64,000 nucleotides of DNA from a bacterium (GTDB lineage: Bacteria > Patescibacteriota > Minisyncoccia > UBA6257 > JAGOQP01). Both the position numbers and the translations under genes were made by a program. Below the pieces are notes generated by a model, which was not told the origin of the DNA, did no database searches, and was given only the letters and a program-made list of their open reading frames with translations. Shown piece by piece: positions 10,669 through 63,674 of the stretch. The stretch is from positions 8,920 through 72,919 of the forward strand of contig JAKAHY010000002.1 in assembly GCA_021814695.1 (NCBI GenBank), given 5' to 3'. Within the stretch, counting starts at the first letter, position 1. Every line of letters begins with the position of its first letter.

Positions 10669-13600
10669 ATGTTGAGAAATCTTAAACACTTTAATCCGCC
10701 GGAAATTGAGGAAAAAGTTTTACAGCTTTGGAAAGAAAAAGGGATATTTCAAAAAACACTCAAAGTTCCAAAAGGAAAAAAGGCCCTGCCTACCGGCAGG
10801 CAGGCAAAAATATTTCGGTTTTGGGAAGGTCCACCGACAGCCAATGGCCGTCCCGGAATTCATCATATTTTAGCCCGTTCTTTTAAGGACGTTGTTTTGC
10901 GTTTTAAAACGATGCAAGGGTATACGGTTCCCCGTAAGGGTGGTTGGGATACTCATGGATTGCCCGTTGAAATCCAGGTTGAAAAGCAGCTCGGATTTAA
11001 AACAAAAAAAGATATAGAAGATTACGGAATAGCCGCATTCAACCAAAAATGTAAAGAATCAGTCTGGCTTTATCAAAGCGAATGGGAAAAATTGACCGAA
11101 CGCATGGGTTTTTGGCTGGATTTGAAAAATCCTTATGTCACATACCACAAAGATTACATAGAGTCGCTTTGGTGGATCATCAAACAAGTTTGGGATAAAG
11201 GGTTGATGTATCAAGGGCATAAAGTGGTTCCTTGGTGTACTCGCTGCGGGACAGCTCTTTCTTCCCATGAATTGGCTCAAGGATACAAAGAGCTTACCGA
11301 TACTTCTGTTTACATAAAATTTAAACTTCTTCCAAAACAAAAAATCGGTTCTTTTATAACCGATGATAAAACATACATCTTATCCTGGACGACGACTCCT
11401 TGGACTTTGCCCGGAAACGTCGCTTTGGCAGTCGGAAATAAAATCAAATATATTGCGGCAAAAATCGGAGGAGAGACTTTTATTATTGCGGAAGATCTTG
11501 CCGGATCGGTTTTGGGATCGGAAAATCATAAAGTTATCAATGAATTTAAAGGCGAGTCGATTTCAGGGAAAGAATACGCCCCACTTTTTGAAATTGCGGC
11601 ATTAAAAAAACCGGAATCGTACAAGGTATATCCGGCTAAATTTGTGACAACCACCGATGGAACGGGGGTGGTGCACACGGCCGTAATGTACGGAGAGGAC
11701 GATTATAACCTGGGAAAAGAAGTCGGACTTCCTCAGCATCATACGGTTACCGAACAAGGAACTTTCACAAAAGACGTTAAAGGATTTGAAGGGATGTACG
11801 TCAAAGCCAAGGAGACCGAGGATAAGATACTAGATTATCTAAAGAAAAATAATTTCCTTTTGCAAACACAGGCTTATACCCATGAATATCCTCATTGCTG
11901 GAGATGTGGAACTCCGCTTTTGTATTACGCGCGCAGTTCATGGTTTGTAGCGATGTCGAAACTGAAAGATAATCTGATCGAAAGCAACCAGGGAACCAAC
12001 TGGGTTCCGGCACATATCAAAGAGGGCAGATATGGAGAATGGCTCTCCGAAATTAAAGATTGGAATTTTTCACGGGAAAGATATTGGGGCACCCCACTGC
12101 CGATCTGGACGTGCGAGAATTGTGGAAACCATAAAGCTGTTGGAAGTTATAAAGAGCTTTCGGAACATCTTCCTTCTAGTACCAACAGATATATTCTTGT
12201 CCGTCATGGAGAAGCGGGGCAAAATGTTTCCAATATAATCAACTGCGACCCCAAAGATAAGGATAAATACCCGTTAACAACCAATGGAATAATCCAGGCG
12301 AAGAGAACTTCCCTGAGCCTCAAGAAAAAAATAAAAAAAATAGACGCGATTATCTCGTCGGATTTTATTCGGACAAAGGAAACCGCAAAAATTATCGGCG
12401 ATGAATTTGGAATAAAGAAAATAATCACCGATCCGCTTTTGAGGGAAGTTAACATGGGAGATTTTAACGGGGACAATGTTTCTCGTTACCACGAGTACTT
12501 TTCTTCGCTTGAAGAAAAATTTATGAAACGGACCCCTAACGGAGAAAACCTCAGAGATCTGGCCGCAAGAAGCTACGATTTTATACAAAAATGTGAAAAA
12601 AAATACAGCGGGAAAACTATTGTTGTGGTAGGGCATGAATATCCGCTGTGGATGGCGGAGACCGTTCTTTCTGGATGGAGTCAGGAAGAATCGGTGTCGG
12701 AAAAAGAAAAAAGAGGTCCCGATTTTATAGAAGTCGGAGGATTTGATTCCGTTACTTTTGTTCCGGCATCAAGAGATGAACAGGGAATCTGTGATTATCA
12801 TAAGCCATATGTGGATTCAATCAGCATCCCTTGCGAAAAATGCGGAAAAAAGATGAATCGAGTTAAAGAAGTTGCCGACGTATGGTTTGATTCGGGGTCA
12901 ATGCCATTTGCCCAAGATCATTATCCTTTTGAGAAGGGTGATAAAGTCGGGAAAGCGCCCCAATCGTTTCCGGCCGATTATATCTGTGAGGCAGTCGATC
13001 AGACCCGCGGGTGGTTTTACACTCTTATGGCCGTCTCTACATTATTGGATTATGAAACGCCGTATAAAAACGTCGTTTGCCTAGGGCATATAAACGACAA
13101 GCATGGACAGAAAATGTCCAAATCAAAAGGGAACATTGTTGATCCATGGATGATAATAGATAAATATGGCATTGATGCCGTTAGGTGGTATTTTTACACC
13201 GTTAATGCTCCGGGGGAGCCGAAGAATTTTGACGAGAATGAGGTTGCTAAAGTACTGAGAAAATTCAGCATGACTCTTTATAATTCGTTCGCGTTTTTGG
13301 CGCTTTATGGAAAACAGAAGGTAAGTATCCAAAAGAAACCTTCATCGCCGAATATTTTGGACAGGTGGATTTTGGCAAGGCTAAATCAAACAACTGTCGG
13401 AGTTTCGGACAAAATGGACGCATATGATTTCTTGGCTACCGGACAAATAATAGAATCGTTTATTGACGATCTTTCCAGATGGTACATTCGCCGATCGAGA
13501 AAGAGATTCCAAAAAATTTCGGATAAATCGGATTGGGGTACGGCGACCGGTGTTTTGGCGTATGTTTTGGCCGAATTTTCAAAAGTGATCGCTCCCTTTA

Positions 13601-14223
13601 CTCCATTTTTCGCCGAAGCTCTTTACAGATCCATAGCCGAATTTTGTTCGTTTAGCGCAAAAGAATCCGTTCATCTCGAATCATGGCCGGAGGGCAGGGT
13701 TTTTAATGACGATGCGGTTATGTCGGAAGCCATGAAACAGATAAGAGACTACGCCAGTGCTGTTTTGGCAAAAAGAGCCGAAGTTGGAATCAAAGTGCGG
13801 CAGCCTTTGAGCTTGTTGAAAATAAGAAGCATTAAGTCTAAAGAAAAAGACTCTAAACAATTATTAGAAGTGTTAAGGGATGAAGTTAACGTCAAAGAAG
13901 TTGTGATTGATCCAAAAATAGAAAATGAATTTGAGTTGGATATCAACATCACTCCGGAACTTAAAGCCGAAGGAATTTTGAGGGAAATAGCCCGGACAAT
14001 TCAGGAATTGAGACAAAGTTCGGCATGTGTTCCCAAGGATAAAATAGAAGTTCGCATTTCCGGACCTGCCGACATTGAAGCGGTGGTCAAAAACGGACAA
14101 GCCACGCTTTGCCAATACGTTAACGCCAAAAATATTCTTTTCGGTAAGAGCGGTAAATTTGATTCCGAAATTGAAACCAAAATTGATTCGTCAAAAATTT
14201 GGATAGGTTTAAGAAAAATATAA
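10669..14223 (+). CDS. ileS: Isoleucyl-tRNA synthetase (type 2-like) carrying an inserted histidine-phosphatase (PGAM-like) domain
   Basis: HIGH-like GRPGIHH, KMSKS, WCTRCGT and CENCG/CEKCG zinc knuckles. Residues about 505-690 (nt about 12180-12730) contain LVRHGE...VVGHE. Confidence 0.95.
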   Translation: MLRNLKHFNPPEIEEKVLQLWKEKGIFQKTLKVPKGKKALPTGRQAKIFRFWEGPPTANGRPGIHHILARSFKDVVLRFKTMQGYTVPRKGGWDTHGLPVEIQVEKQLGFKTKKDIEDYGIAAFNQKCKESVWLYQSEWEKLTERMGFWLDLKNPYVTYHKDYIESLWWIIKQVWDKGLMYQGHKVVPWCTRCGTALSSHELAQGYKELTDTSVYIKFKLLPKQKIGSFITDDKTYILSWTTTPWTLPGNVALAVGNKIKYIAAKIGGETFIIAEDLAGSVLGSENHKVINEFKGESISGKEYAPLFEIAALKKPESYKVYPAKFVTTTDGTGVVHTAVMYGEDDYNLGKEVGLPQHHTVTEQGTFTKDVKGFEGMYVKAKETEDKILDYLKKNNFLLQTQAYTHEYPHCWRCGTPLLYYARSSWFVAMSKLKDNLIESNQGTNWVPAHIKEGRYGEWLSEIKDWNFSRERYWGTPLPIWTCENCGNHKAVGSYKELSEHLPSSTNRYILVRHGEAGQNVSNIINCDPKDKDKYPLTTNGIIQAKRTSLSLKKKIKKIDAIISSDFIRTKETAKIIGDEFGIKKIITDPLLREVNMGDFNGDNVSRYHEYFSSLEEKFMKRTPNGENLRDLAARSYDFIQKCEKKYSGKTIVVVGHEYPLWMAETVLSGWSQEESVSEKEKRGPDFIEVGGFDSVTFVPASRDEQGICDYHKPYVDSISIPCEKCGKKMNRVKEVADVWFDSGSMPFAQDHYPFEKGDKVGKAPQSFPADYICEAVDQTRGWFYTLMAVSTLLDYETPYKNVVCLGHINDKHGQKMSKSKGNIVDPWMIIDKYGIDAVRWYFYTVNAPGEPKNFDENEVAKVLRKFSMTLYNSFAFLALYGKQKVSIQKKPSSPNILDRWILARLNQTTVGVSDKMDAYDFLATGQIIESFIDDLSRWYIRRSRKRFQKISDKSDWGTATGVLAYVLAEFSKVIAPFTPFFAEALYRSIAEFCSFSAKESVHLESWPEGRVFNDDAVMSEAMKQIRDYASAVLAKRAEVGIKVRQPLSLLKIRSIKSKEKDSKQLLEVLRDEVNVKEVVIDPKIENEFELDINITPELKAEGILREIARTIQELRQSSACVPKDKIEVRISGPADIEAVVKNGQATLCQYVNAKNILFGKSGKFDSEIETKIDSSKIWIGLRKI

Positions 14224-30157: not shown

Positions 30158-30227
30158 TTTTTATAAAAAAGTTTATTAACATGATGGACTTTTTTTAAAA
30201 ATCACGATAACATAAACTCACAAATTT

Positions 30228-30299
30228 GCGGGTATCGTATAGCGGCTATTATACTTCCTTGCCAAGGAAGAGATACGGGTCCGACTCCCGTTACCCGCT
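30228..30299 (+). tRNA. tRNA-Gly(GCC)
   Basis: Cloverleaf: acceptor GCGGGTA/TACCCGC, anticodon loop TTGCCAA, discriminator T, CCA not encoded. The T-loop TCCGACT is unusual because position 55 is C. Confidence 0.7.
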
Positions 30300-30340
30300 C
30301 AAAAACAAAAATTACCCAAACGGGTAATTTTTGTTTTGGG

Positions 30341-30466
30341 TGTTGACGGGGTAGGATGCGGGGTGGTCGAGGGGCTGCAAGCCCCTCGTGTTGGAAATTA
30401 TTCAAAACCGAGGGTTTTGAAGGAGCGAATATAATGAGCGACGTCCGATTTCCCGTTACCCGCTCA
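30341..30466 (+). repeat. tRNA-trailer mini-element copy E1 (ends with a duplicate of the tRNA-Gly(GCC) 3' end)
   Basis: Contains hairpin CGAGGGGC-tgcaa-GCCCCTCG, then tgttggaaatt, then aaaccgagggtttt, ending in tcccgttacccgctca. Confidence 0.6.
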
Positions 30467-30502
30467 AAAACAAAAAGCACCACAAGGGTGTTTTTTGTTT
30501 TC

Positions 30503-30650
30503 TGTCCGCCCGGAAGGGAGTCTCACGTCGCTCCGACATTGCGTCGGAGCTCCCAAGACACCCTCGGTTTCTTGACGCTCCTCCGGAGCTTTTTCCTACA
30601 CGGGAGATTAAGCATCTCCCGACCCCTCTCTATTCAATTCCTTGTTGACG
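30503..30650 (-). repeat. tRNA-trailer mini-element copy E2 (minus orientation; ends with a tRNA-Lys 3' end duplicate)
   Basis: Minus strand: aattgaatagagaggggtcgg, hairpin GGAGATGCTTAATCTCC, cgtgtaggaaaaag, cgtcaagaaaccgagggtgtcttggg, then gtgagactCCCTTCCGGGCGGACA. Confidence 0.6.
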
Positions 30651-30689
30651 AACAAAACAAAAAATATTCACAAAGGATATTTCTTATTT

Positions 30690-30826
30690 TGTCCGCCCGG
30701 AAGGGAATCTCACGTCGCTCCGACCTTGCGTCGGAGCTCCTTAAAACCATTCGGTTTTAATATTTCCTCCACGGAAAACCTTCGGTTTCCCGACCCCATC
30801 CGATTTGATTCCTTTACTGACGAATA
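30690..30826 (-). repeat. tRNA-trailer mini-element copy E3 (minus orientation; ends with a tRNA-Lys 3' end duplicate)
   Basis: Minus strand: ggaatcaaatcggatggggtcgg, hairpin GGAAACCgaaGGTTTTCC, gtggaggaaatat, hairpin TAAAACCgaatGGTTTTA, then gtgagattCCCTTCCGGGCGGACA. Confidence 0.6.
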
Positions 30827-30865
30827 TAAAACAAAAAGCACCACAAGGGTGTTTTTTGTTTTCTG

Positions 30866-30938
30866 TCCGCCCGGAAGGGATCGAACCTTCGACCGTCTCC
30901 TTAAGAGGGAGCTGCTCTACCAGCTGAGCTACGGGCGG
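30866..30938 (-). tRNA. tRNA-Lys(CTT)
   Basis: Minus strand: CCGCCCGTAGCTCAGCTGGTAGAGC...CTCTTAA...GGTTCGATCCCTTCCGGGCGGA; anticodon CTT. Confidence 0.85.
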
Positions 30939-30978
30939 TACGAAACCATTCTGCCATCAAAAAAATAATTTTGCAATC

Positions 30979-31920
30979 TTATGGCTGAAAAATCGGTTGG
31001 GTTTGTCCATCAATTGAAAGCGTTATGGATTTTATTGTTGGAAATTGAAGGAGTGTTTGTTTTATTTGTGCCACACGCATTGCCATGGAACATGAACCGC
31101 CCCCAGATTCTGTTAGCGAATTAAAATCGGCATGCGCATTGTCGTTGCTGTCTATGGAAAGAGAATTTAAATCAGAACCTGGTGGCAAGGAGCTTGTATA
31201 TCCGGAATCACTTTCGTCTTGAGTTGGCCCGGCAAAAAGCAATTCCAGTGCTGCCGTCGCTATTTTGGGAGTGGTTATTATCTGTCTTTCTACGGGAACA
31301 ACTTCTTTGCAGGTTTTTTCCGGCTTTATTTTATTGTTGGCAAAATAAACCTTGATTGAAACGAATTCCGGCATGGACGATTTGGAAGAGCTTACTTGTA
31401 AAGATTGGATAATTTTTAATGATTCATCAACCGGTTTCTTCAGATGAGCAATGACAAAACCGGGTGTTTGGGCAAAAATTATCCATTCGTCGGTAATATT
31501 TGAATAAGTAGCAACATCATTCGTCTTATAAGAAAAATTATTTAAAGAAGGTAAACAATCCGGACATTGTGACTTATATTGATTTTCCCAAAAATCTTTT
31601 GCCGAAGGGAAACCGGCAGCACCGTTATAGAAAAAAGAAACCGTATTTATCTGATTATTTGAAAGATTTTCTATGGTAACAAGCGATGGCAATGTAACTT
31701 TTGACTTAAGAGAAAATTTATCTTTGGGGTATGAAAATTGGTAAGCGATATTTTGAAAATCGCCTTCATATCCGACAACGTAAGAGTTTGAGAAGGTTGC
31801 CAGTTCCGGAGAAGGAGATGGGGCATTAACGGTTGAAATGGGATTATTTTTTATGAATCCAAAATAAGCGGCTATTGTCGCCAATAAAAATAATAAAATA
31901 AAAATAATTGTTTTCTTCAT
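30979..31920 (-). CDS. Secreted GerMN-domain protein (lipoprotein-like)
   Basis: Signal peptide; the C-terminal region VYFANNK...VPVERQI...AALELLFAGPT resembles a GerMN domain. Confidence 0.45.
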   Translation of the reverse strand: MKKTIIFILLFLLATIAAYFGFIKNNPISTVNAPSPSPELATFSNSYVVGYEGDFQNIAYQFSYPKDKFSLKSKVTLPSLVTIENLSNNQINTVSFFYNGAAGFPSAKDFWENQYKSQCPDCLPSLNNFSYKTNDVATYSNITDEWIIFAQTPGFVIAHLKKPVDESLKIIQSLQVSSSKSSMPEFVSIKVYFANNKIKPEKTCKEVVPVERQIITTPKIATAALELLFAGPTQDESDSGYTSSLPPGSDLNSLSIDSNDNAHADFNSLTESGGGSCSMAMRVAQIKQTLLQFPTIKSITLSIDGQTQPIFQP

Positions 31921-35154: not shown

Positions 35155-35438
35155 TTTGATATTTGACGAAGTCAATATATTCTGTTTTTATATTCTTTCG
35201 GACTGGTAATGTGGACAGTTTTCTGAAACAATAAATATGACACTGTGTGGGTGTCGAGCGTTCACGTTCTTTGTTTTAATTATCTATCGGTCTTGAGCCG
35301 AAGAGTTTTTTACACGCATTTATTTGTTTATTTGAATTAAAATTGGAAATTGGTATTTTTTCTTGTATTTCACCCGTGGTGAGGCATAGTATGTCGGTAG
35401 TACGTGCATTCGTTACGTTAGATAAATATCGGGCTGTA

Positions 35439-35509
35439 GTATACCGGTAGTACGTGCGCTTCGGGTGCGTAAAGACCGGGTTCGATTCCCGGCAGCCCGA
35501 CTAAAATAG
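35439..35509 (+). tRNA. tRNA-Pro(CGG)
   Basis: CGGGCTG acceptor, anticodon loop TTCGGGT (G37), T-arm CCGGGTTCGATTCCCGG. Preceded by a TTGTAT-17-TAGTAT promoter. Confidence 0.85.
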
Positions 35510-35544
35510 AAATCCCATTCGGGATTTTTATTTTTGCTTGGACT

Positions 35545-35681
35545 CCGGAAATTGAATCAGAAGGGGTCGGGGAACCTGTGGTTCCCCGTGTAGGAAAAAG
35601 TCCGCCCTGGGCGGACGTCAAGAAACCGAGGGTGTTTTGGGAGGAGTGAAACGACGACGTGAGATTCCCGGCAGCCCGACG
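35545..35681 (+). repeat. tRNA-trailer mini-element copy E4 (ends with a tRNA-Pro 3' end duplicate; followed by a second terminator and a 5' fragment of another copy at 35730-35748)
   Basis: ggaaattgaatcagaaggggtcgg, hairpin GGAACCtgtGGTTCC, cgtgtaggaaaaag, hairpin GTCCGCCctgGGCGGAC, cgtcaagaaaccgagggtgttttggg, ending gtgagATTCCCGGCAGCCCGAC. Confidence 0.6.
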
Positions 35682-35772
35682 AAAATAAAATTCCCCTTTA
35701 GGGGAGTTTTATTTATGTTTGGGTTTCAGGGGAATTGAATCGGAAGAAAAATGTTCTTAAATTTGATATACT

Positions 35773-37355: not shown

Positions 37356-37462
37356 AAATTATAGTGACATTGCATGAGTGTGGGTTCGGTTCTCGCTGGA
37401 TCTACCAAAAACAAATCCCCCCTTAGTTATCTAGTTGACTTTCGGATAACTTTTGATTACTA

Positions 37463-47791: not shown

Positions 47792-47839
47792 CTCCGAGCA
47801 TGTCTCGGAGATTTTTTTAATCAAAAAATAATATTTGAA

Positions 47840-47960
47840 AATATCCCGACAAGTGAGGGGATTTTGTATAGTCCTTCTTCGCATAAAGCTTCGAAGGACA
47901 CTTTTCGTCTGGCTTGCACTTCGTAGCTCGCCAGGGCGAAGAAGTGAGCGGGTAAGGGGA
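47840..47960. repeat. Perfect about 121 bp direct repeat, copy 1 (duplicate of the tRNA-Gly(TCC) 3' end plus about 105 nt of trailer)
   Basis: Identical to 48069-48188. Confidence 0.8.
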
Positions 47961-48068
47961 AGTCTTACGCTCACCCCCGACCCCCGCTTAAGAAACCTTC
48001 GGGTTTCTTACGTCCCTATTTTCCAACACGGGGGTTCGCATTCGACTCCCAAACTCACCCACAAAAAA
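47961..48068 (-). repeat. tRNA-trailer mini-element copy E5 (rearranged family member) sitting between the two 121 bp direct repeats
   Basis: Minus strand carries gtgttggaaaatagg, hairpin GACGTAAGAAACC-cgaa-GGTTTCTTAAGC and gggggtcggggg modules. Confidence 0.5.
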
Positions 48069-48188
48069 ATATCCCGACAAGTGAGGGGATTTTGTATAGT
48101 CCTTCTTCGCATAAAGCTTCGAAGGACACTTTTCGTCTGGCTTGCACTTCGTAGCTCGCCAGGGCGAAGAAGTGAGCGGGTAAGGGGA
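48069..48188. repeat. Perfect about 121 bp direct repeat, copy 2 (overlaps the true tRNA-Gly(TCC) 3' end and trailer)
   Basis: Identical to 47840-47960. Confidence 0.8.
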
Positions 48189-48245
48189 GTCGGACCCCTC
48201 TCATCAGCTTGGAAAGCTGAGGTAATACCGATATACGATACCCGC
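48175..48245 (-). tRNA. tRNA-Gly(TCC)
   Basis: Minus strand: GCGGGTATCGTATATCGGTATTACC TCAGC TTTCCAA GCTGA TGAG AGGGG TCCGACT CCCCT TACCCGC T. Same unusual T-loop as tRNA-Gly(GCC). Confidence 0.7.
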
Positions 48246-48941: not shown

Positions 48942-49014
48942 GGGCCGTTAGCTTAGTTGGTAGAGCGCCTCGTTTGCAACGAGGAGGTCACCGGTTCGAA
49001 TCCGGTACGGTCCA
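48942..49014 (+). tRNA. tRNA-Ala(TGC)
   Basis: GGGCCGTTAGCTTAGTTGGTAGAGC... anticodon loop TTTGCAA, G3:U70, T-loop TTCGAAT. Confidence 0.9.
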
Positions 49015-49060
49015 CATAACAAAAAAATTGCCTAGCGCAATTTTTTTGTTATGATGAATC

Positions 49061-49184
49061 AGGGTCGGTTTGAATATTTAGGGGTCGGGGTATTTGTAAA
49101 TACCCCGAGTAAGAAAATTTGAGAAACCGTGGGTTTCTCACGAACGAATGAAATGAGTGAGGTGAGATTCCGGTACGGTCCACA
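49061..49184 (+). repeat. tRNA-trailer mini-element copy E6 (ends with a tRNA-Ala(TGC) 3' end duplicate)
   Basis: tttgaatatttaggggtcgg, hairpin GGTATTtgtaAATACC, cgagtaagaaaatt, hairpin TGAGAAACCgtgGGTTTCTCA, ...ggtgagaTTCCGGTACGGTCCACA. Confidence 0.6.
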
Positions 49185-49188
49185 AAAT

Positions 49189-56978: not shown

Positions 56979-57062
56979 AAATTCGGATATAATAATTATA
57001 AAAGATAGAGGTTACCGGTTTCCAGATCTTCGTGATCGGCAATCTTTTTGTCTTATACGACC

Positions 57063-58142
57063 ATGTTTGATCTCTTAAAAAAAATTATTCCCGGACGATC
57101 TTCTTATCTTGGCGTTGATATCGGGACTACCTCAATTAAAGCTGTCGAACTTACCAAAGGAGCGCAAAATCCGACTCTGACGAATTACGGACTTTTGGAA
57201 AGTTATGGCCACTTTGAGCGTGCTAATAATGTCATACAGGCCAACGCCCTTAAGCTTTCAGAAAAAGAGACAACGTTTATGCTTAAGACTCTTGTAAAAC
57301 AATCGGGATTTAAAACCAGCGCGGCGATTGCATCCATTCCTTCGTTTGCTTCTTTCATAACAATGATTGAAATGCCCTCCATGTCAGAAGAAGAGACTAA
57401 TAAAGCTATGGGATTTCAGATAAGACAGAGCGTTCCTCTGCCCCTATCGGAAATTGCCGTAGATTGGATTAGGGTCGGCGAACGCAATGATGAAAACGGG
57501 TTTGCTAAACAGCAGATGGTTCTCATCGCAATTCCAAACGAAACGGTTTCCAGATATAAATCTATTTTCAAGGGAGCGGGACTTTCTTTAAAAGCGCTCG
57601 AAGTGGAAAGCCTGTCCTATATACGATCGGTTATTGGAGGAGATAAAACTCCTTCGATGATTATTGATATCGGTGCGCGCTCCACAAACATCACTGTCGT
57701 TGACCAGGGATTTTTGAAACATAATTCTCAGATAGATTATGCCGGAGATTCTTTAACGCAAGCGATTACCAAGGGACTGGGTATAAGCTACAAGAGAGCC
57801 GAGGAGCTCAAGAAACAACGGGGCATAAGCGGAGGGTCCGGAGAATATGAGTTATCCACATTGGAACTACCTTTCATAGATGTTATAATTAGTGAGGTAA
57901 ATAAGGTTAAGGACAATTTTGAGTCCAATTTTGGCTTAAAAATTCAGCGGGCCATACTCATAGGGGGAGGCTCAAGCTTGATAGGAATAGATAAATATTT
58001 TGAAAGCCAAATGCAAATAACCTCAGTGTTGGGCAATGGATTACTTTTTGTGAATACTCCAAGTCAGTTGAACGTTGTTGAAAAAGAGTTGCAGGTAAGA
58101 TTTGCGACAGCGATAGGGCTTGCGATAAAGAATTTCGTTTAG
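57063..58142 (+). CDS. pilM: Type IV pilus assembly protein PilM (actin-like ATPase)
   Basis: YLGVDIGTTSIKAVEL and IDIGARSTNI motifs. The track ORF begins at TTG 57048. Confidence 0.8.
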   Translation: MFDLLKKIIPGRSSYLGVDIGTTSIKAVELTKGAQNPTLTNYGLLESYGHFERANNVIQANALKLSEKETTFMLKTLVKQSGFKTSAAIASIPSFASFITMIEMPSMSEEETNKAMGFQIRQSVPLPLSEIAVDWIRVGERNDENGFAKQQMVLIAIPNETVSRYKSIFKGAGLSLKALEVESLSYIRSVIGGDKTPSMIIDIGARSTNITVVDQGFLKHNSQIDYAGDSLTQAITKGLGISYKRAEELKKQRGISGGSGEYELSTLELPFIDVIISEVNKVKDNFESNFGLKIQRAILIGGGSSLIGIDKYFESQMQITSVLGNGLLFVNTPSQLNVVEKELQVRFATAIGLAIKNFV

Positions 58143-58155
58143 TTTTAAATTTTTC

Positions 58156-58719
58156 ATGGCAGATTTAAATACAACAGTAAATCGAGCGCGAGCGGCAGGA
58201 GCGGCATCCGCCGGTTTTCCTTGGCGGCTTTTAATTATATCTTTCGTTGTGTTCGGGCTGACGATTCTTGTCTGGGCCGGAATTCAATTTGGATACATTC
58301 CGTTTTTGAATTCCCAGTTATCGAACGCTATGGCTAATTTTAATTCCCTTTCCGGAAAAATCAGCGAGCAACAGCAGAAAGACCTGACCGGTTTTTATTC
58401 TCAGCTCTATAATATTCAGTCTTTGCAAGCGTCACATATTTATTCCGCGAAACTGTTTGATTTTTTGGAGAAAAATATTTATCCCAACGTTGTTTTAACC
58501 AGTTTTCAGGCGAGCCTTACCGGAGGAAGTATCCGTTTTGATGGAATTGCTTCCGACTACTCTACCCTAACTAACGAGCTGGCAATACTTAAATCCGATC
58601 CGAACGTAACTTTGGTAACGCTGGATTCGTCGCGCCAAAAAGATGTTAAAGAAGGAGGGGGAGTGGCATTTACAATAAGCGTATCCATTTCGCCAAAATT
58701 ATTTGATTCCGCCCAATAA
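58156..58719 (+). CDS. pilN: PilN-like pilus assembly protein
   Basis: Single N-terminal TM segment followed by a coiled coil; position after pilM. Confidence 0.5.
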   Translation: MADLNTTVNRARAAGAASAGFPWRLLIISFVVFGLTILVWAGIQFGYIPFLNSQLSNAMANFNSLSGKISEQQQKDLTGFYSQLYNIQSLQASHIYSAKLFDFLEKNIYPNVVLTSFQASLTGGSIRFDGIASDYSTLTNELAILKSDPNVTLVTLDSSRQKDVKEGGGVAFTISVSISPKLFDSAQ

Positions 58720-59305
58720 TATGAAAACAAGCTCCAGAAGAATTCTATTTGTCATATTATCTCTAACCTTGGTTATTGCGGCTGCTTTTGTATATTCCTC
58801 TTTTATTTCTCCGGCCTATGACAATGTCATGACTTTAAGAAGCCAAATTGCGTCCCAGAACTCCGTTATTCAGAGATTCCAGATTACATTCGGAAAGGTG
58901 CAAAAACTTTTATCGGATCTTCAGACCGCTCCGGATGTCCAAAAACAGGTATCTCTGATTCTCCCGACGTCCCGTGACGTGAGTTATTTGGTCGGCCAGA
59001 TTTCAGGACTTGCCGAAGCAAACGGAATGACGCTTTCGCTTCTTTCAACAAATGTTCTTCCGGTTCAGCCGGCACAATCCAAAGTTATTCAGTCTGTGGG
59101 AAAATTGCGAGCGGATATCAAGTTGAACGGAAGTTATGCCGGATTCAAATCTTTTCTGAGGCAATTGCAATCAAATATTCTTCTGCTTGATGTGACGGAT
59201 ATTAAAATAGACAGCAGCGTGGTCAGTGGCACTACCGGTAGGGCCGGCTCAACATCTTTATCGTATTCCATATCTGTAAATAGTTATTATCAAACGAGTC
59301 AATAA
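58703..59305 (+). CDS. pilO: PilO-like pilus assembly protein
   Basis: N-terminal TM segment; position in the locus. Confidence 0.45.
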   Translation: MIPPNNMKTSSRRILFVILSLTLVIAAAFVYSSFISPAYDNVMTLRSQIASQNSVIQRFQITFGKVQKLLSDLQTAPDVQKQVSLILPTSRDVSYLVGQISGLAEANGMTLSLLSTNVLPVQPAQSKVIQSVGKLRADIKLNGSYAGFKSFLRQLQSNILLLDVTDIKIDSSVVSGTTGRAGSTSLSYSISVNSYYQTSQ

Positions 59306-59308
59306 TTT

Positions 59309-59605
59309 ATGGCAATTTTTATTGAAGAAGAAAAAAAGGGAGGTGGCAGGTGGTTTGGTTTCGGGATAATATTTATTTCCCTCATAATTGTTGGGGCAGC
59401 GGTTTATTATCTGTTTTTTGTACAGACTCAATTATTCAACGTAGTCCTTCCGATAAAACTTCAATCCATTGACGAACTGACAAAGATCGCGAATTTTGAC
59501 CCTCAGACGGTTATCAACAGCGATTTTTATAAAAGTCTAAGACAGGTGATTCCGCCGCCGAGTCCTCCTCCGGCCGGCAACGCATCCCCATTTAATGTTT
59601 TTTAG
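59309..59605 (+). CDS. Small membrane protein within the pilus locus
   Basis: 98 aa, one TM segment, Pro-rich C-terminus. Confidence 0.3.
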   Translation: MAIFIEEEKKGGGRWFGFGIIFISLIIVGAAVYYLFFVQTQLFNVVLPIKLQSIDELTKIANFDPQTVINSDFYKSLRQVIPPPSPPPAGNASPFNVF

Positions 59606-59607
59606 AT

Positions 59608-61344
59608 ATGGAGAACAAAGTTCTCATTGACAAGTTAATTGCATCGGGCGCACTGAGTCAGGATAACGGGCAGAAGCTTCTTCAAGAAGCTTCTTTTGCC
59701 AAACGACCAGTGGAAGAACTCATGTACGAAAGGAGAATTATTCCCGAACAAGCGCTGATGGATGCAAAGAGCCAGCTTCTTAAAGCGCCGTATAAAAAAA
59801 TTGACCCGCAGTCTATTACCGACCAAGTTTTGAAAACAATTCCGGAAACTACCGTAAGAAATTTTAAAGTTGTTCCGATTGAGTTAAAAGAAGATCTGTT
59901 AGTTGTCGGTATGGTTAATCCCGACGATGAGAAGGCCCAGGATGCGCTAAAATTCATAGCCAGGCAACTGAGGGTGAATCTTGGAATATATCTTATTCCC
60001 ATGTCTTTGTGGGACACGATCCTGAGAAGATATTCTCCATACCGGAGTGAAGTTGAAGCGGCAGTGAAATCTATTTCGGCTTTTGGTAAAAAAATGACGC
60101 CGGCATCCCAGATTGTTCAATTGGAAGCTGGCCAGACCGGAGCGGAAGATGCTCCAATCATCCGCATAGTGGCATCAACTTTAAAAGAAGCGGTTTTTGA
60201 GCAGGCGTCAGATATACATATAGAGCCTCAGCGTAATCGACTGCGTATTCGTTTCAGGCTTGATGGGGAATTGAGGGAAGTGGCCTCAATGCCTCTTGAG
60301 CTTTATCAGCCAATCGTTTCGCGCATAAAAGTCCTTTCGGATTTGAAAATAGACGAGACTCGTGTTCCTCAAGATGGGCGCTTTAGGACAATGTTAATGG
60401 GAAGGGATATAGACTTTCGTGTTGCGACATTTCCGACTCCGGTAGGGGAAAAAGTAGCAATACGTGTTTTGGACCCGACTGTCGGGCTGAAGGGGCTTAA
60501 GGAGCTGGGGCTTATGGGAAGAAATTTGGATATTATTCAGCAGGGAATAGAAAAGCCTTACGGCATGGTACTTATCACCGGACCAACCGGTTCGGGTAAA
60601 ACAACGACGCTGTATGCTTTGATGCAGGGACTTAACAACGATTCGGTTAATATCGTCAGCTTGGAAGATCCTGTGGAATATTATATGGACGGATTAAACC
60701 AGTCCCAAGTACACCCCGAAATAGGATACGACTTTGCTTCCGGACTCAGACAGATTCTAAGACAAGATCCCGATATTATTATGGTCGGTGAAATTCGCGA
60801 TAATGAAACTGCGGCACTGGCCGTTCATGCGGCTCTGACCGGACACATTGTTCTATCGACGCTGCACACCAATAACGCAGTCGGAGTTATTCCTCGTCTT
60901 TTGGATATGAAAGTCGATTCATTCCTTATCCCGGCATCGCTAAACTTGATGGTTGGCCAGCGCCTGATTCCAAAACTTTGCCAGCAATGCAAAGAAGAGA
61001 AGCAACTCACTCCGGATTTAACCAGAGAAATGGAAGCTACTCTTAAGGAAATATCCGAAGAGGACAAAAAATCTTTTGGTATAGAAGCTCCTTATAAAGT
61101 TTACGAATCCAAGGGTTGCTCCGCGTGTAAGGGCAAAGGAATTTCCGGACGTATAGCAATGTTTGAAATATTAAGAATGACTCGGGAATTGGCGGAAGTC
61201 ATCAGTCGTAAGGGAACCGAGGGCGATATTGTTAAGGAGGCGGAGCGACAACATATGATTACTTTGCGCCAGGATGGGGTGATGAAGGCGGTTAAAGGTT
61301 TGGTATCTTTGGAAACCGTTCTTCGTGAAACGGAATTGATGTAA
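59608..61344 (+). CDS. pilB: Type IV pilus assembly ATPase PilB (GspE family, full length)
   Basis: N-terminal GSPII_E_N-like domain, Walker A GPTGSGKTTT and a C-terminal Cys tetrad. Confidence 0.9.
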   Translation: MENKVLIDKLIASGALSQDNGQKLLQEASFAKRPVEELMYERRIIPEQALMDAKSQLLKAPYKKIDPQSITDQVLKTIPETTVRNFKVVPIELKEDLLVVGMVNPDDEKAQDALKFIARQLRVNLGIYLIPMSLWDTILRRYSPYRSEVEAAVKSISAFGKKMTPASQIVQLEAGQTGAEDAPIIRIVASTLKEAVFEQASDIHIEPQRNRLRIRFRLDGELREVASMPLELYQPIVSRIKVLSDLKIDETRVPQDGRFRTMLMGRDIDFRVATFPTPVGEKVAIRVLDPTVGLKGLKELGLMGRNLDIIQQGIEKPYGMVLITGPTGSGKTTTLYALMQGLNNDSVNIVSLEDPVEYYMDGLNQSQVHPEIGYDFASGLRQILRQDPDIIMVGEIRDNETAALAVHAALTGHIVLSTLHTNNAVGVIPRLLDMKVDSFLIPASLNLMVGQRLIPKLCQQCKEEKQLTPDLTREMEATLKEISEEDKKSFGIEAPYKVYESKGCSACKGKGISGRIAMFEILRMTRELAEVISRKGTEGDIVKEAERQHMITLRQDGVMKAVKGLVSLETVLRETELM

Positions 61345-61382
61345 ATTAGCCAATAAATATTCGATAAGTTATACTTAAATAT

Positions 61383-62453
61383 ATGACTGACTACAAACAG
61401 AAACTGAACGATCTTTTGTTGATGTGCGCCAAACAAGATGCTTCCGACCTGCATATTGCCGTTGGGCGCCACCCGACTTTGCGTATAGACGGAGCATTGG
61501 TTCCGCTGACAAAAGAATTAATATTGACACCCCAGGATGCCGAAGGCCTTGTTTTGGCTTTATTGACCGAATCTCAGAAGGGCGAACTTGCCTTGAAAAA
61601 ACAAGTCGACTTTTCTTATTCCTATGAAGACAAAGCGCGGTTCAGGGTAAATACTTATTATCAGCGCGGATATATGGCTGCGGCTTTGCGTTTAATTCCG
61701 GCCCAAATCAGAACAATTGAGGAACTTAAATTACCTCCGATACTGCATGATTTTGCCAATCTGTCACAGGGATTCGTGCTTGTTGTGGGTCCGGCGGGAC
61801 ACGGCAAGTCAACGACGCTGGCCGCCGTTTTGGATGAGGTAAACCATAATCGCACGGAACACATTGTCACCATTGAAGATCCGATAGAATATATTTTCGT
61901 TCAGGATAAAAGTATCGTTTCCCAAAGAGAGGTGCGGACCGATGCTATGGATTTTTCGCAGGCATTGAGATCGCTTCTCAGACAGGACCCGGACGTAGTT
62001 ATGATAGGAGAAATGCGCGATACGGAATCTATTGCAACTGCCTTAACCGCAGCCGAAACCGGACACTTGGTTCTTTCAACTCTTCACACCAACTCCGCTT
62101 CTCAAACAATCGACAGAATCATAGACAGCTTTCCGGCCGAACAGCAAAGTCAGATAGCTTCTCAACTTGCGGCAACGCTTGTGGGAATCGTTTCCGAGCG
62201 TCTTATTCCACGAATCGAAGGAGGCCGTGTTCCGACTTGTGAAATTATGATAGCCAATCCGGCCATAAGAAATTTAATTCGGGAAAGAAAAACCTATCAG
62301 ATAGATTTGGTTATAGAAACTAATGCTCAAGAAGGAATGATCACGCTCAATCGTTCGTTGGCGGATTTGGTGCGCCGCAGGGAAATAAGCTTGGAAAATG
62401 CCGAGTTGTACTCTCTCAATCCTTCCGAGTTAAGAATCCTTTTGGAAAAATAA
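61383..62453 (+). CDS. pilT: Twitching-motility retraction ATPase PilT
   Basis: GPAGHGKSTT and LVLSTLHTNSA motifs. Confidence 0.9.
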   Translation: MTDYKQKLNDLLLMCAKQDASDLHIAVGRHPTLRIDGALVPLTKELILTPQDAEGLVLALLTESQKGELALKKQVDFSYSYEDKARFRVNTYYQRGYMAAALRLIPAQIRTIEELKLPPILHDFANLSQGFVLVVGPAGHGKSTTLAAVLDEVNHNRTEHIVTIEDPIEYIFVQDKSIVSQREVRTDAMDFSQALRSLLRQDPDVVMIGEMRDTESIATALTAAETGHLVLSTLHTNSASQTIDRIIDSFPAEQQSQIASQLAATLVGIVSERLIPRIEGGRVPTCEIMIANPAIRNLIRERKTYQIDLVIETNAQEGMITLNRSLADLVRRREISLENAELYSLNPSELRILLEK

Positions 62454-62459
62454 ATAGAA

Positions 62460-63674
62460 ATGAAGTTCAAATATCAAGCCAGAAATAAAACAGGGGAATT
62501 ACAGGTGGGATTTGTTGAGGCTACCACGAGAGATGCGGCTTCCAACACCCTTACTTCCCATGACCTCTACGTTCTTAGCATTGAATCGGCGGAGAAAAAG
62601 AGCGTCTTTGACGCACTAACCAAAGTTTTCAAGAGAGTAAAAACAAAAGACCTGATGATATTTACCAGACAGCTGGCGACTCTTTTGGAATCCCAAATGC
62701 CTCTTAATAATGCACTGCAATCTTTGTATCAGCAGACTAATAACGAAACACTCAAAGAGTCGGTTTTTTTGATACTTCAGGACGTAGAAGCGGGACTTTC
62801 TTTGTCACAAGCTCTTGAGAGGCAGCGGCCGATATTTTCCGAATTTTATGTGAGCATGGTACGTTCGGCCGAAGTCACCGGACGTCTTGAGGAGGCGATG
62901 ACTTTTTTGGCTTATTACATAGAACGCGAAGCTAAATGGAAAGGAAAAATCGGCAATGCTCTTATTTATCCGGCAGTTCTTTTGGGTATGTTTGTCATAG
63001 TTGCCGGAATTATGGTTGCGGTGGTATTTCCTAAAATTCAGCCTGTTTTTACCGAAAGCAATGTCCAGCTTCCGTTTGTCACCCAGGCTTTAATGTCCGG
63101 GGGACAGTTAATTAGCAATTGGTGGTGGTTGGTGATTTTGGTTATGGCGGGCATAGTTTTTATTATCGTCGACTATCTTAGGAGCAATGAAGGAAAGGCG
63201 GTGGGCAACCAGCTGATATTGGTCATCCCCGTATTTGGAGAGCTTTTTAAAAAAATATATATCGCCCGTTTTTGCCAATCCCTTAGCGTTTTAATCAAAG
63301 GAGGCATTCCCATAACTCAGGCAATCGAAATAGCATCTTCTACTATTAACAACGTTATATACGAAGAAGTATTAAAACAAATAGCCGAAGGCGTCAGAGG
63401 TGGCGCGCTGTTTTCCCAGCTTCTGGGGGACAACATTAAATATTTTCCGATAATGGTCAGTCAAATGGCGGCAGTAGGAGAAACTACCGGCAGAGTGGAC
63501 GAAATGATGAATAAAATCGCGGATTTTTATGACAGCGAAGTAAACGATATGATGGCCAATCTTTCGGAATTAATTCAACCTATTTTAATTCTTATTATCG
63601 GCGTATTAATTGCCCTGCTATTTGCCGCCATTCTTCTTCCTATTTACAATATGGCCCAAACATTTAAAATATAA
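62460..63674 (+). CDS. pilC: Type IV pilus platform protein PilC (GspF family)
   Basis: Two GspF repeats and 3 TM segments. Confidence 0.9.
   Translation: MKFKYQARNKTGELQVGFVEATTRDAASNTLTSHDLYVLSIESAEKKSVFDALTKVFKRVKTKDLMIFTRQLATLLESQMPLNNALQSLYQQTNNETLKESVFLILQDVEAGLSLSQALERQRPIFSEFYVSMVRSAEVTGRLEEAMTFLAYYIEREAKWKGKIGNALIYPAVLLGMFVIVAGIMVAVVFPKIQPVFTESNVQLPFVTQALMSGGQLISNWWWLVILVMAGIVFIIVDYLRSNEGKAVGNQLILVIPVFGELFKKIYIARFCQSLSVLIKGGIPITQAIEIASSTINNVIYEEVLKQIAEGVRGGALFSQLLGDNIKYFPIMVSQMAAVGETTGRVDEMMNKIADFYDSEVNDMMANLSELIQPILILIIGVLIALLFAAILLPIYNMAQTFKI

Follow-up and report, generated by a model that had tools for sequence, protein, structure and literature searches.

What kind of entity is formed by the short structured repeats that lie behind tRNA genes in a 64,000-nucleotide stretch of a patescibacterial genome (contig JAKAHY010000002.1; the whole stretch is referred to here as the window)? 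An earlier note, made from the sequence alone, had described three copies between the convergent genes for tRNA-Gly(GCC) and tRNA-Lys(CTT), and six copies at five tRNA loci overall. [quoted passage not shown] The analysis presented here points to an answer that is broader than either: the repeats are apparently a large, widespread and undescribed family of structured elements in Patescibacteria, in which a core of about 90 nt is preceded by an arm complementary to the end of the target gene and followed by a displaced copy of that same end. The family targets the ends of tRNA and protein genes alike, without tRNA specificity.

Fold and Covariation of the Core

The complete element measures about 100–190 nt. 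Its core consists, in this order, of GGGGUCG, a variable hairpin A, GUGNNGGAAA, an optional hairpin B, a conserved hairpin C (AAACCGNGGGUUU), GGAG, an optional hairpin D and CGAC. A covariance model trained on 24 copies, all of them from outside the genome that contains the window, found exactly six sites in the window, the same number as had been given for the five tRNA loci. Five of these are standard copies scoring 43–80 bits (E 6e-19 to 5e-9), the copy at tRNA-Gly(TCC) is weak (17.8 bits, E 0.02), and the model gave no further credible copies in the 64 kb. The conserved flank motifs quoted in the earlier note are all present, and the hairpin A stems that it listed are correct and base-paired in every case.

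The note had also named two outcomes that would speak against its proposal, namely the lack of copies beyond these and the lack of covariation in a larger alignment. Neither came about, as matches elsewhere number in the hundreds and covariation persists. Model R1 detects 113 copies from 96 sources, some of them outside the selection made by the search pattern, and in the corresponding 113-sequence alignment 92.6% of the cells are paired and 215 cells have changed on both sides. The observed covariation values were reached by none of 500 shuffles, and every slid control was far lower. Both-sided changes occur at 12 of the 18 pairs, with strong covariation in hairpins A and C, and the small, tentative helix GUC:GAC presents one-sided (wobble) changes only. 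These compensatory changes, which the earlier note had already ascribed to selection on structure, show selection on single-strand structure. Moreover, the excess of G.U over A.C pairs (48 vs 21) assigns the fold to the sense strand, as RNA or single-stranded DNA (ssDNA), and the single-stranded form is most likely sense-strand RNA rather than ssDNA. Searches with Rfam 15 at gathering thresholds recognized only tRNA and transfer-messenger RNA (tmRNA) in the window, and the region 30200–31000 gave no meaningful match even at E values up to 10.

The Target-Complementary Arm and the Duplicated Gene End

When each of the six window copies was folded, its 5′ flank proved complementary to the duplicated gene end. 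Arm and duplicated end thereby form a long outer helix of target sequence, by which the element is closed. Thus, at tRNA-Gly(GCC), GGGUG-UUG-ACGGGG pairs with CCCGU-UACCC, and at tRNA-Gly(TCC), GUGGGUGAG..GGGAGUC pairs with GACUUCCCCUUACCCGC. The 5′ arm of the tRNA copies runs from an acceptor-5′-like segment, through a 3-nt linker or a hairpin, to a T-stem-5′-like segment, and the outer helix mirrors the stacked acceptor and T stems of the adjacent tRNA. It often carries a 3-nt bulge precisely at the acceptor/T junction, a place occupied by a hairpin in other families. Arms were scored by duplex energy, as their detection by an exact seed or by the complement of the acceptor end proved too strict. 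Family-wide, the flank duplex amounts to −21.2 kcal/mol with its own partner vs −15.0 kcal/mol with mismatched partners (p = 2e-14). Snap-back synthesis off the terminator hairpin was considered as a general origin of the arm and discarded, the segment from X to the arm being non-palindromic in the protein-gene copies.

The downstream copy of the target starts directly 3′ of the core CGAC in nearly every case, with occasional microhomology of 1–2 nt. The length of the duplicated segment varies by copy between 15 and 123 nt, and includes perfect long direct repeats of 123 (at tRNA-Gly(TCC)), 112 and 90 nt. No common motif was found 5′ of X across the junctions. The layout is constant, consisting of the gene, its intact terminus (X-Y), the arm, the core and the displaced copy (X′-Y′); in locus L092, the arm follows X directly. 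As the intact terminus is retained on the gene side, the gene remains functional. The likeness of these duplications to attL/attR, suggested in the earlier note, was borne out, since direct repeats of the target gene end flank the element. The arm, the protein-gene targets and the variable length of a duplication that begins after CGAC had been overlooked.

The Copies in the Window

According to ARAGORN and Rfam, the window contains eight tRNA genes and one tmRNA gene. Five of these tRNA genes, namely Gly-GCC, Lys-CTT, Pro-CGG, Ala-TGC and Gly-TCC, have the element downstream of them, in the same orientation as the tRNA and with one or two copies per occupied tRNA. All sites share the same order: tRNA, A/T-flanked hairpin terminator, 5′ arm, purine-rich linker, core and tRNA-end copy, the latter comprising the end of the T-loop, the 3′ strand of the T-stem and the 3′ strand of the acceptor, usually with a second terminator next to it. 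This second terminator, previously regarded as a feature of its own, belongs to the duplicated segment. Similarly, the tRNA-end duplicate is, as had been stated, an exact copy of the T-stem 3′ strand and acceptor of its own tRNA, but it extends over 123 nt at tRNA-Gly(TCC) and not over the 16–17 nt assigned to it.

The three copies between tRNA-Gly(GCC) and tRNA-Lys(CTT) were located as described, one oriented as the Gly gene and two, in tandem, as the Lys gene. tRNA-Gly(GCC) (30228–30300, plus strand; ARAGORN, Rfam) and its A/T-flanked terminator hairpin, where an inverted repeat (I4) of 16 nt is 100% complementary, constitute the segment X-Y, that is, the intact gene end (30228–30337, plus strand). 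Copy 1, of the standard type (30338–30465, plus strand; 80.1 bits, E 6e-19 in the covariance model), is made of an arm (30338–30354), a core (30355–30442) and the duplicated 3′ end of tRNA-Gly, X′ (30443–30465), and its arm GGGUGUUGACGGGG pairs with CCCGUUACCC. It is followed by a hairpin terminator (30466–30502, with no strand assigned) that is common to copy 1 and the distal Lys copy, and that has the same sequence as the terminator adjoining tRNA-Lys (repeat family D1, 53 nt, 100%). The distal Lys copy, copy 3 (30503–30689, minus strand; 42.7 bits), has its X′ at 30524–30503, its core at 30634–30525, its arm at 30652–30635 and a second, different terminator at 30689–30653. The proximal one, copy 2 (30690–30864, minus strand; 57.6 bits), has X′ at 30711–30690, core at 30805–30712, arm at 30827–30806 and terminator at 30864–30828. 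Both have as their target tRNA-Lys(CTT) (30865–30938, minus strand; ARAGORN, Rfam).

The tRNA-Pro(CGG) locus (35430–35750, plus strand; 43.5 bits) starts with the tRNA (35430–35501) and its terminator (35502–35537), which precede copy 4, with arm at 35538–35554, core at 35555–35657, X′ at 35658–35682 and second terminator at 35683–35718. Next comes a solitary arm and linker without core (35719–35750, plus strand; GGGGAATTGAATCGGAAG), which stops precisely at the expected core start. The tRNA-Ala(TGC) locus (48942–49186, plus strand; 57.4 bits) comprises the tRNA (48942–49015), a terminator (49016–49051) and copy 5, with arm at 49052–49072, core at 49073–49163 and X′ at 49164–49186. The nucleotides at the junctions are identical in the Pro copy and in the distal Lys copy, although their stems differ entirely.

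Copy 6 belongs to a rearranged ("permuted") subtype, also present in three other genomes, in which hairpin A is the open helix. This is not a clean circular permutation, as hairpin C and the GGAG..CGAC module exchange order. At its locus (47838–48245, minus strand; 17.8 bits), tRNA-Gly(TCC) (48245–48174) overlaps a first repeat unit made of the tRNA 3′ end, trailer and terminator (48188–48066), the arm and core of copy 6 lie at 48065–47961, and a second repeat unit (47960–47838) is a perfect 123-nt copy of the first. A link between orientation and replication was examined and dropped: GC skew is positive across the whole window, yet each strand bears three copies.

Distribution and Targets of the Family

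A pattern scan covering one genome per species gave, among the matches listed, at least 120 loci (designated by L numbers), nearly all of them in metagenome-assembled genomes (MAGs) of Patescibacteria, the group also known as the candidate phyla radiation (CPR). They spread from Paceibacteria through to MAGs labelled Saccharibacteria. Three high-GC, non-CPR pattern matches (L042, L070 and L086) were rejected by model R1. Slightly more than half of the scorable copies (55 of 103) lie downstream of a same-strand tRNA, with 29 different isoacceptors represented, and most of the remaining ones are found at the 3′ end of a same-strand open reading frame (ORF). The idea of a tRNA-linked family therefore had to be given up, as about half of the 103 scorable copies are at protein-gene ends. 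Recognizable targets of this kind encode S7 (before fusA), L11, L33, a Mur ligase, a DeoC-like protein and small membrane proteins. In these copies, what follows CGAC repeats the final 15 to more than 100 nt of the gene, and the arm is the reverse complement of the start of the duplicated terminus.

Several individual loci are instructive. In L101, an insertion of about 125 nt, accompanied by a 15-nt repeat, splits the tight rpsG-fusA junction, which is uninterrupted in L082; a stop codon is provided just inside the insertion. Antisense placements also occur. In L110, the element is placed at the 5′ end of a gene for a LepA-like GTPase, of which the first 14 codons are duplicated together with a new ribosome-binding site, and L023 abuts the 3′ end of an opposite-strand tRNA. 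The two copies of the coding terminus in L034, L124 and L110 differ mostly at synonymous sites, which indicates that both evolved as coding sequence in different lineages, as predicted for import by recombination. Tandem arrays, such as the two Lys copies in the window, were also found in L025, L048 and L126. The window is densely populated, with 6 copies per 64 kb vs about 1 per 83 kb in metagenome contigs, the latter having been chosen solely by the presence of the tRNA-Pro 3′ end.

Presence and Absence in Relatives

The earlier note had recommended that strains be compared at the same tRNAs. Relatives with 96–80% identity, found by means of MurI homologues, which also place the organism within the Paceibacterota, provided empty sites, different copies and swaps of subtype. 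The 96% relative (L143) has tRNA-Pro and its terminator as in the window, but differs in the arm and in hairpin A, and its arm matches the solitary arm that trails the tRNA-Pro locus of the window; comparable trailing partial copies exist in L111 and L149. Of two 84% relatives, one has nothing at tRNA-Pro, and the other has the rearranged subtype there, with a partial copy trailing it. An 81% relative lacks the element at tRNA-Lys, and at tRNA-Gly(GCC) it has the rearranged subtype instead of the standard type present in the window.

A metagenome scan with the exact 28-nt 3′ end of tRNA-Pro retrieved 120 loci, with about 100 tRNA-Pro genes of identical 3′ end, and only 4–5 have the core. Several of the core-free loci contain other bodies, set in the same way between a terminator with inverted T-arm and a tRNA-end copy. 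Such dissimilar bodies in a shared frame, found 3′ of tRNA-Pro in L189, L191, L203, L209, L213 and L272, may constitute a superfamily, and some of them have a hairpin inserted precisely at the acceptor/T junction of the 5′ arm. Taken together, the relatives and the tRNA-Pro scan indicate that the element is sporadic, that it turns over rapidly and that its layout is common to other cores. Three further loci (L171, L212 and L222) display tandem repeats of about 47 nt (GAGCGAAGCGAAGGAGGYACTGAGCATGAATGCGTATGTACAAGACTA) directly 3′ of tRNA-Pro.

The Search for a Mobility Enzyme and for Known Relatives

The Pfam hits of the whole 64-kb window, which correspond to genes for housekeeping functions, to metal transporters and to a type IV pilus/competence cluster, include no integrase, transposase or reverse transcriptase, in agreement with the earlier statement that the window encodes no integrase. 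Clustering of the ORFs around 120 copies identified EF-G (a recurrent neighbour because S7 is a target), an ABC transporter, putative large serine recombinases (5 loci) and a small ORF (5 loci), labelled LAGLIDADG-like by guess only, but no gene for mobility consistently placed near the copies. In these 5 of the 120 loci, a putative large serine recombinase is encoded no more than 8 kb from the element. In L073 (1606–3260), L121, L128 and L137, these ORFs converge on tRNA 3′ ends and enter an opposite-strand tRNA; the recombinase islands are regarded as separate elements using the same tRNA ends as the mini-elements. For the island of L073, the best reading is that it entered tRNA-Met at a later time, upstream of a mini-element that was already there, since the old terminator is preceded by a remnant of the tRNA-Met end. 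After inspection of the five loci, a large serine recombinase was dropped as the general mobilizing enzyme.

Searches for an autonomous relative in viral contigs, phages, plasmids and the ORFs around the copies found none: the two-motif pattern gave 14 matches in viral contigs, all in random high-GC sequence, and blastn against INPHARED phages and PLSDB plasmids gave no match. A full-text literature search found no description of the element; the nearest paper concerns group I introns in CPR tRNAs, which are unrelated to it, and reports no group II introns among 95 complete Patescibacteria genomes (PMC13011429).

In its broad kind, the element is a small structured non-autonomous repeat or mini integrative element, set apart from the named families in three respects: a terminal inverted repeat derived from the target, a duplication of the gene terminus of variable length and a very wide range of targets within one family. 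It resembles the tRNA-integrating islands and CIMEs in that these also insert between the tRNA T-loop and the 3′ end, or at the 3′ end of a conserved gene, restore the gene, have a displaced copy of the gene end beyond the insertion and form tandem arrays. It differs from them in its size (100–190 bp), in the lack of an integrase in the window, in its dozens of targets and variable repeat length, and in having a conserved single-stranded fold and a target-complementary arm between the repeats. Thus, the proposal of a non-autonomous CIME/MITE-like element agrees with the presence/absence pattern in relatives, whereas the arm falls outside that picture. MITEs, Correia, ERIC, Rickettsia palindromic elements and REP/REPIN are likewise structured, ORF-free sequences of about 100–150 nt and high copy number that are tolerated at or inside genes, and for several of them the route of mobilization is unknown. 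However, these have conserved terminal inverted repeats and either short, fixed duplications or none, whereas the terminal inverted repeat considered here is target sequence and varies from site to site, and 15–123 nt of a gene terminus are duplicated. Neither terminal inverted repeats common to all copies, nor an accompanying autonomous transposon, nor a short target-site duplication of fixed length was found.

A different kind of likeness exists with the nucleic-acid-guided elements, such as group II introns with their exon- and intron-binding sequences (EBS/IBS), IS110 with its bridge or seek RNA, IS200/IS605 with its guides and TnpB with its ωRNA. In all of them, an internal segment is complementary or identical to the flanking target, and a structured RNA stands beside a target-derived segment as a scaffold stands beside a guide. 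In contrast to these, the neighbourhood of the element lacks a reverse transcriptase, an IS110 recombinase, TnpA and TnpB, the target is duplicated, and the pairing consists of one continuous closing helix of 10–20 nt and not of internal loops or a free guide. More specifically, the duplication, the lack of a motif 5′ of X and the absence of tnpA/tnpB from the window do not correspond to IS200/IS605-type PATE or TnpB ωRNA. The lack of a DEDD recombinase in the window and among neighbours, together with a pairing segment that is the closing helix, does not correspond to IS110. As for group II introns, retrons and other retroelements, there is no Rfam match and no reverse transcriptase in the window or among neighbours. 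Inspection of the junctions also separated the element from integron attC sites, as GTT is missing from the protein-gene targets and there is no cassette array. Finally, small self-cleaving ribozymes (hammerhead, twister) and viroid-like RNAs share with it a compact multi-helix core with invariant junctions and covarying stems, and the small ribozymes also have variants in which a different helix is open. Here, in contrast, there is no Rfam match and no hammerhead CUGANGA box, and the rearranged subtype is not a clean circular permutation. An informal by-eye comparison discarded the hammerhead, hairpin, hepatitis delta virus (HDV), twister, pistol and hatchet ribozymes, as well as the K-turn, integron attC and retron a1/a2. 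The template/variable repeat (TR/VR) pair of diversity-generating retroelements was discarded by eye, since the differences between the two copies are not adenine-specific.

How Might the Element Move?

The favoured model, to which an even chance is given, is that of a non-autonomous mobile element whose single-stranded core is recognized in trans, whose arm pairs with the target and which spreads by recombination. According to this model, a factor supplied in trans would recognize the conserved core, and pairing between arm and target would define or stabilize the point of insertion. The element is lodged at the extreme ends of conserved genes, between the T-loop and the 3′ end of tRNAs, or at the last or first codons of genes for ribosomal proteins and other housekeeping functions. 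Once established, the unit would pass between lineages by homologous recombination, the gene body and X′ serving as two homology arms. Such a spread fits DNA uptake by competence pili in CPR bacteria, and the type IV pilus/competence-like cluster of the window (57048–63674; PilM, PilN, two T2SSE ATPases and T2SSF) is relevant in this regard.

A number of observations weigh against this model. Transcription is putative: in tRNA contexts, a terminator precedes the element, and no sigma-70-like promoter was found, in a promoter and terminator scan that is uninformative for these AT-rich hairpins. No enzyme acting in trans emerged from the window or the neighbouring ORFs, and neither a circle nor an RNA intermediate came to light. 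The arm could be a product of insertion, for instance by snap-back copying of the flank, rather than a guide. In many tRNA copies, the displaced copy reads GUGAGAUUCC and the arm is perfectly complementary to GUUCGAUUCC, so that it fits the live tRNA better than its own 3′ partner. The perfect repeats of 123, 112 and 90 nt resemble fresh target-site duplications and the synonymous cases resemble imported termini, each origin of X-Y thus being favoured by some examples; both routes may exist, or neither model may hold. The layout may also be dictated by something other than the core, given the unrelated-looking bodies found in the same frame. In addition, hairpins B and D of the main family repeatedly contain a GCGAAGC mini-hairpin, as do its displaced tRNA-end copies, and, as hairpins of this sequence are exceptionally stable as DNA, an ssDNA form is still a candidate.

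Several other explanations have to be weighed against the same body of evidence. That the repeats arose by chance or as an artefact of assembly might be suspected from the fact that contigs of the source species are frequently broken at these loci; this is refuted, its probability being practically nil, since the loci recur in independent ENA, NCBI, JGI and Logan assemblies, unrelated MAGs contain hundreds of copies and, for the 20-mer motif, the number of matches expected from shuffled controls is zero. It is rather unlikely that they are miniature integrative elements (CIME-like remnants or satellites) served by a tyrosine or serine integrase encoded elsewhere, with the core and arm acting as attP arms or accessory-factor sites and the duplicated gene end as the att identity segment. 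As in tRNA-integrating islands, one flank holds the intact gene end and the other a displaced copy, which would agree with this, as would the tandem arrays, which repeated integration into attL would produce, and the recombinase genes near 5 of the 120 loci; the tRNA T-loop is, moreover, a classical crossover site. However, an integrase recognizes one att sequence, whereas a single core family occupies at least 29 tRNA isoacceptors and unrelated protein genes, with repeats of 15 to 123 nt that lack a fixed core. The covarying stems and the preference for G.U fit a single-stranded fold and not duplex protein-binding sites, no cognate integrase is encoded in the window, and the recombinases are inconsistently placed, the island of L073 being a separate, later insertion on the best reading.

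A copying mechanism similar to that of short interspersed nuclear elements (SINEs), in which a reverse transcriptase supplied in trans copies the core RNA into nicked targets, its ends (the arm and X′) annealing to the two 3′ overhangs of a staggered break, is improbable. It predicts target duplications of variable length and an arm that matches the flank, and it would account for the precise CGAC|X′ junction with its microhomology, for repeats that are variable and sometimes perfect, and for the arm placed directly after X in L092; the sense-strand fold also fits. Against it stand the absence of a reverse transcriptase from the window and from the neighbouring ORFs, the absence of group II introns from the 95 complete genomes surveyed (PMC13011429), the lack of an evident promoter and the synonymous-difference cases, which are not plain target duplications. 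A role useful to the host, as a structured RNA multiplied by local duplication and recombination, is judged unlikely, if worth considering. It might be a module for 3′-end processing or stability, a ribozyme or a minihelix mimic, and in tRNA contexts an acceptor/T-stem minihelix could engage RNase P, RNase Z or the CCA-adding enzyme. The arm-closed helix does imitate the coaxial acceptor/T stack, the junction nucleotides stay invariant between copies with wholly different stems (Pro vs distal Lys), the subtypes with another helix open recall small ribozymes, and the genome of the window is dense in copies. Nevertheless, most identical tRNA-Pro genes lack the element and close relatives differ, the antisense placements of L110 and L023 are hard to reconcile with such a role, no Rfam ribozyme or RNA family matches, and the duplication of a gene terminus with its junction precisely after CGAC is left unexplained.

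A bolder version of the mobile-element model, offered tentatively and at well below an even chance, is a class of elements that are protein-less and programmed by nucleic acid, in which a core of about 90 nt, as RNA or ssDNA and possibly catalytic, is joined to an exchangeable, target-complementary arm. The arm would pick or fix the insertion point, and the gene end would be rebuilt during insertion. Host enzymes and the DNA-uptake and recombination machinery of CPR bacteria would suffice, and other types of core may follow the same plan.

Other Observations

Additional tRNA-derived sequences were noticed. At 37356–37412 of the window, tRNA-Ala(CGC) has behind it the 3′ part of another tRNA (GTGGGTTCGGTTCTCGCTGGATCTACCA, with CCA) with no adjoining core, which looks like an att scar left by a separate element. 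Just upstream of tRNA-Pro, at 35386–35425, the 5′ half of this gene is present a second time in degenerate form. In the 84% relative L149 (3480–3990), a small ORF, putatively GIY-YIG-like as judged by eye, is found near a 5′-half tRNA copy, with inverted repeats around it and a 38-nt copy of the tRNA 3′ half 3′ of the gene. These 5′-half tRNA-Pro copies in the window and in L149 appear to represent a second, different mobile element at the same tRNA. Two genes of the window also deserve mention. The isoleucyl-tRNA synthetase (10669–14223, 1184 aa) contains, according to Pfam, an inserted histidine-phosphatase (His_Phos_1) domain, and the tmRNA gene (2672–2988), which adjoins smpB, encodes a tag predicted by ARAGORN as EAYPRKALSYP, without the usual alanine-rich C-terminal end.

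Significance

Whatever the mechanism, these elements break assemblies, yield pseudo-fragments of tRNA and gene ends that confuse annotation and mark recombination between lineages, and the covariance model offers a direct route to their annotation. The genomes of CPR/Patescibacteria are tiny and thought to be poor in transposons. In contrast to this view, one element family is found at five of the eight tRNA loci of the window and recurs in many CPR lineages. That it amounts to something categorically new, either a programmable element that lacks its own protein or a ribozyme of a new kind, is conceivable but doubtful. If the core were catalytic, it would represent a new ribozyme class, and if the insertion site is really programmed by the arm, nature would have in this family a minimal, retargetable insertion system that operates without a dedicated protein gene.

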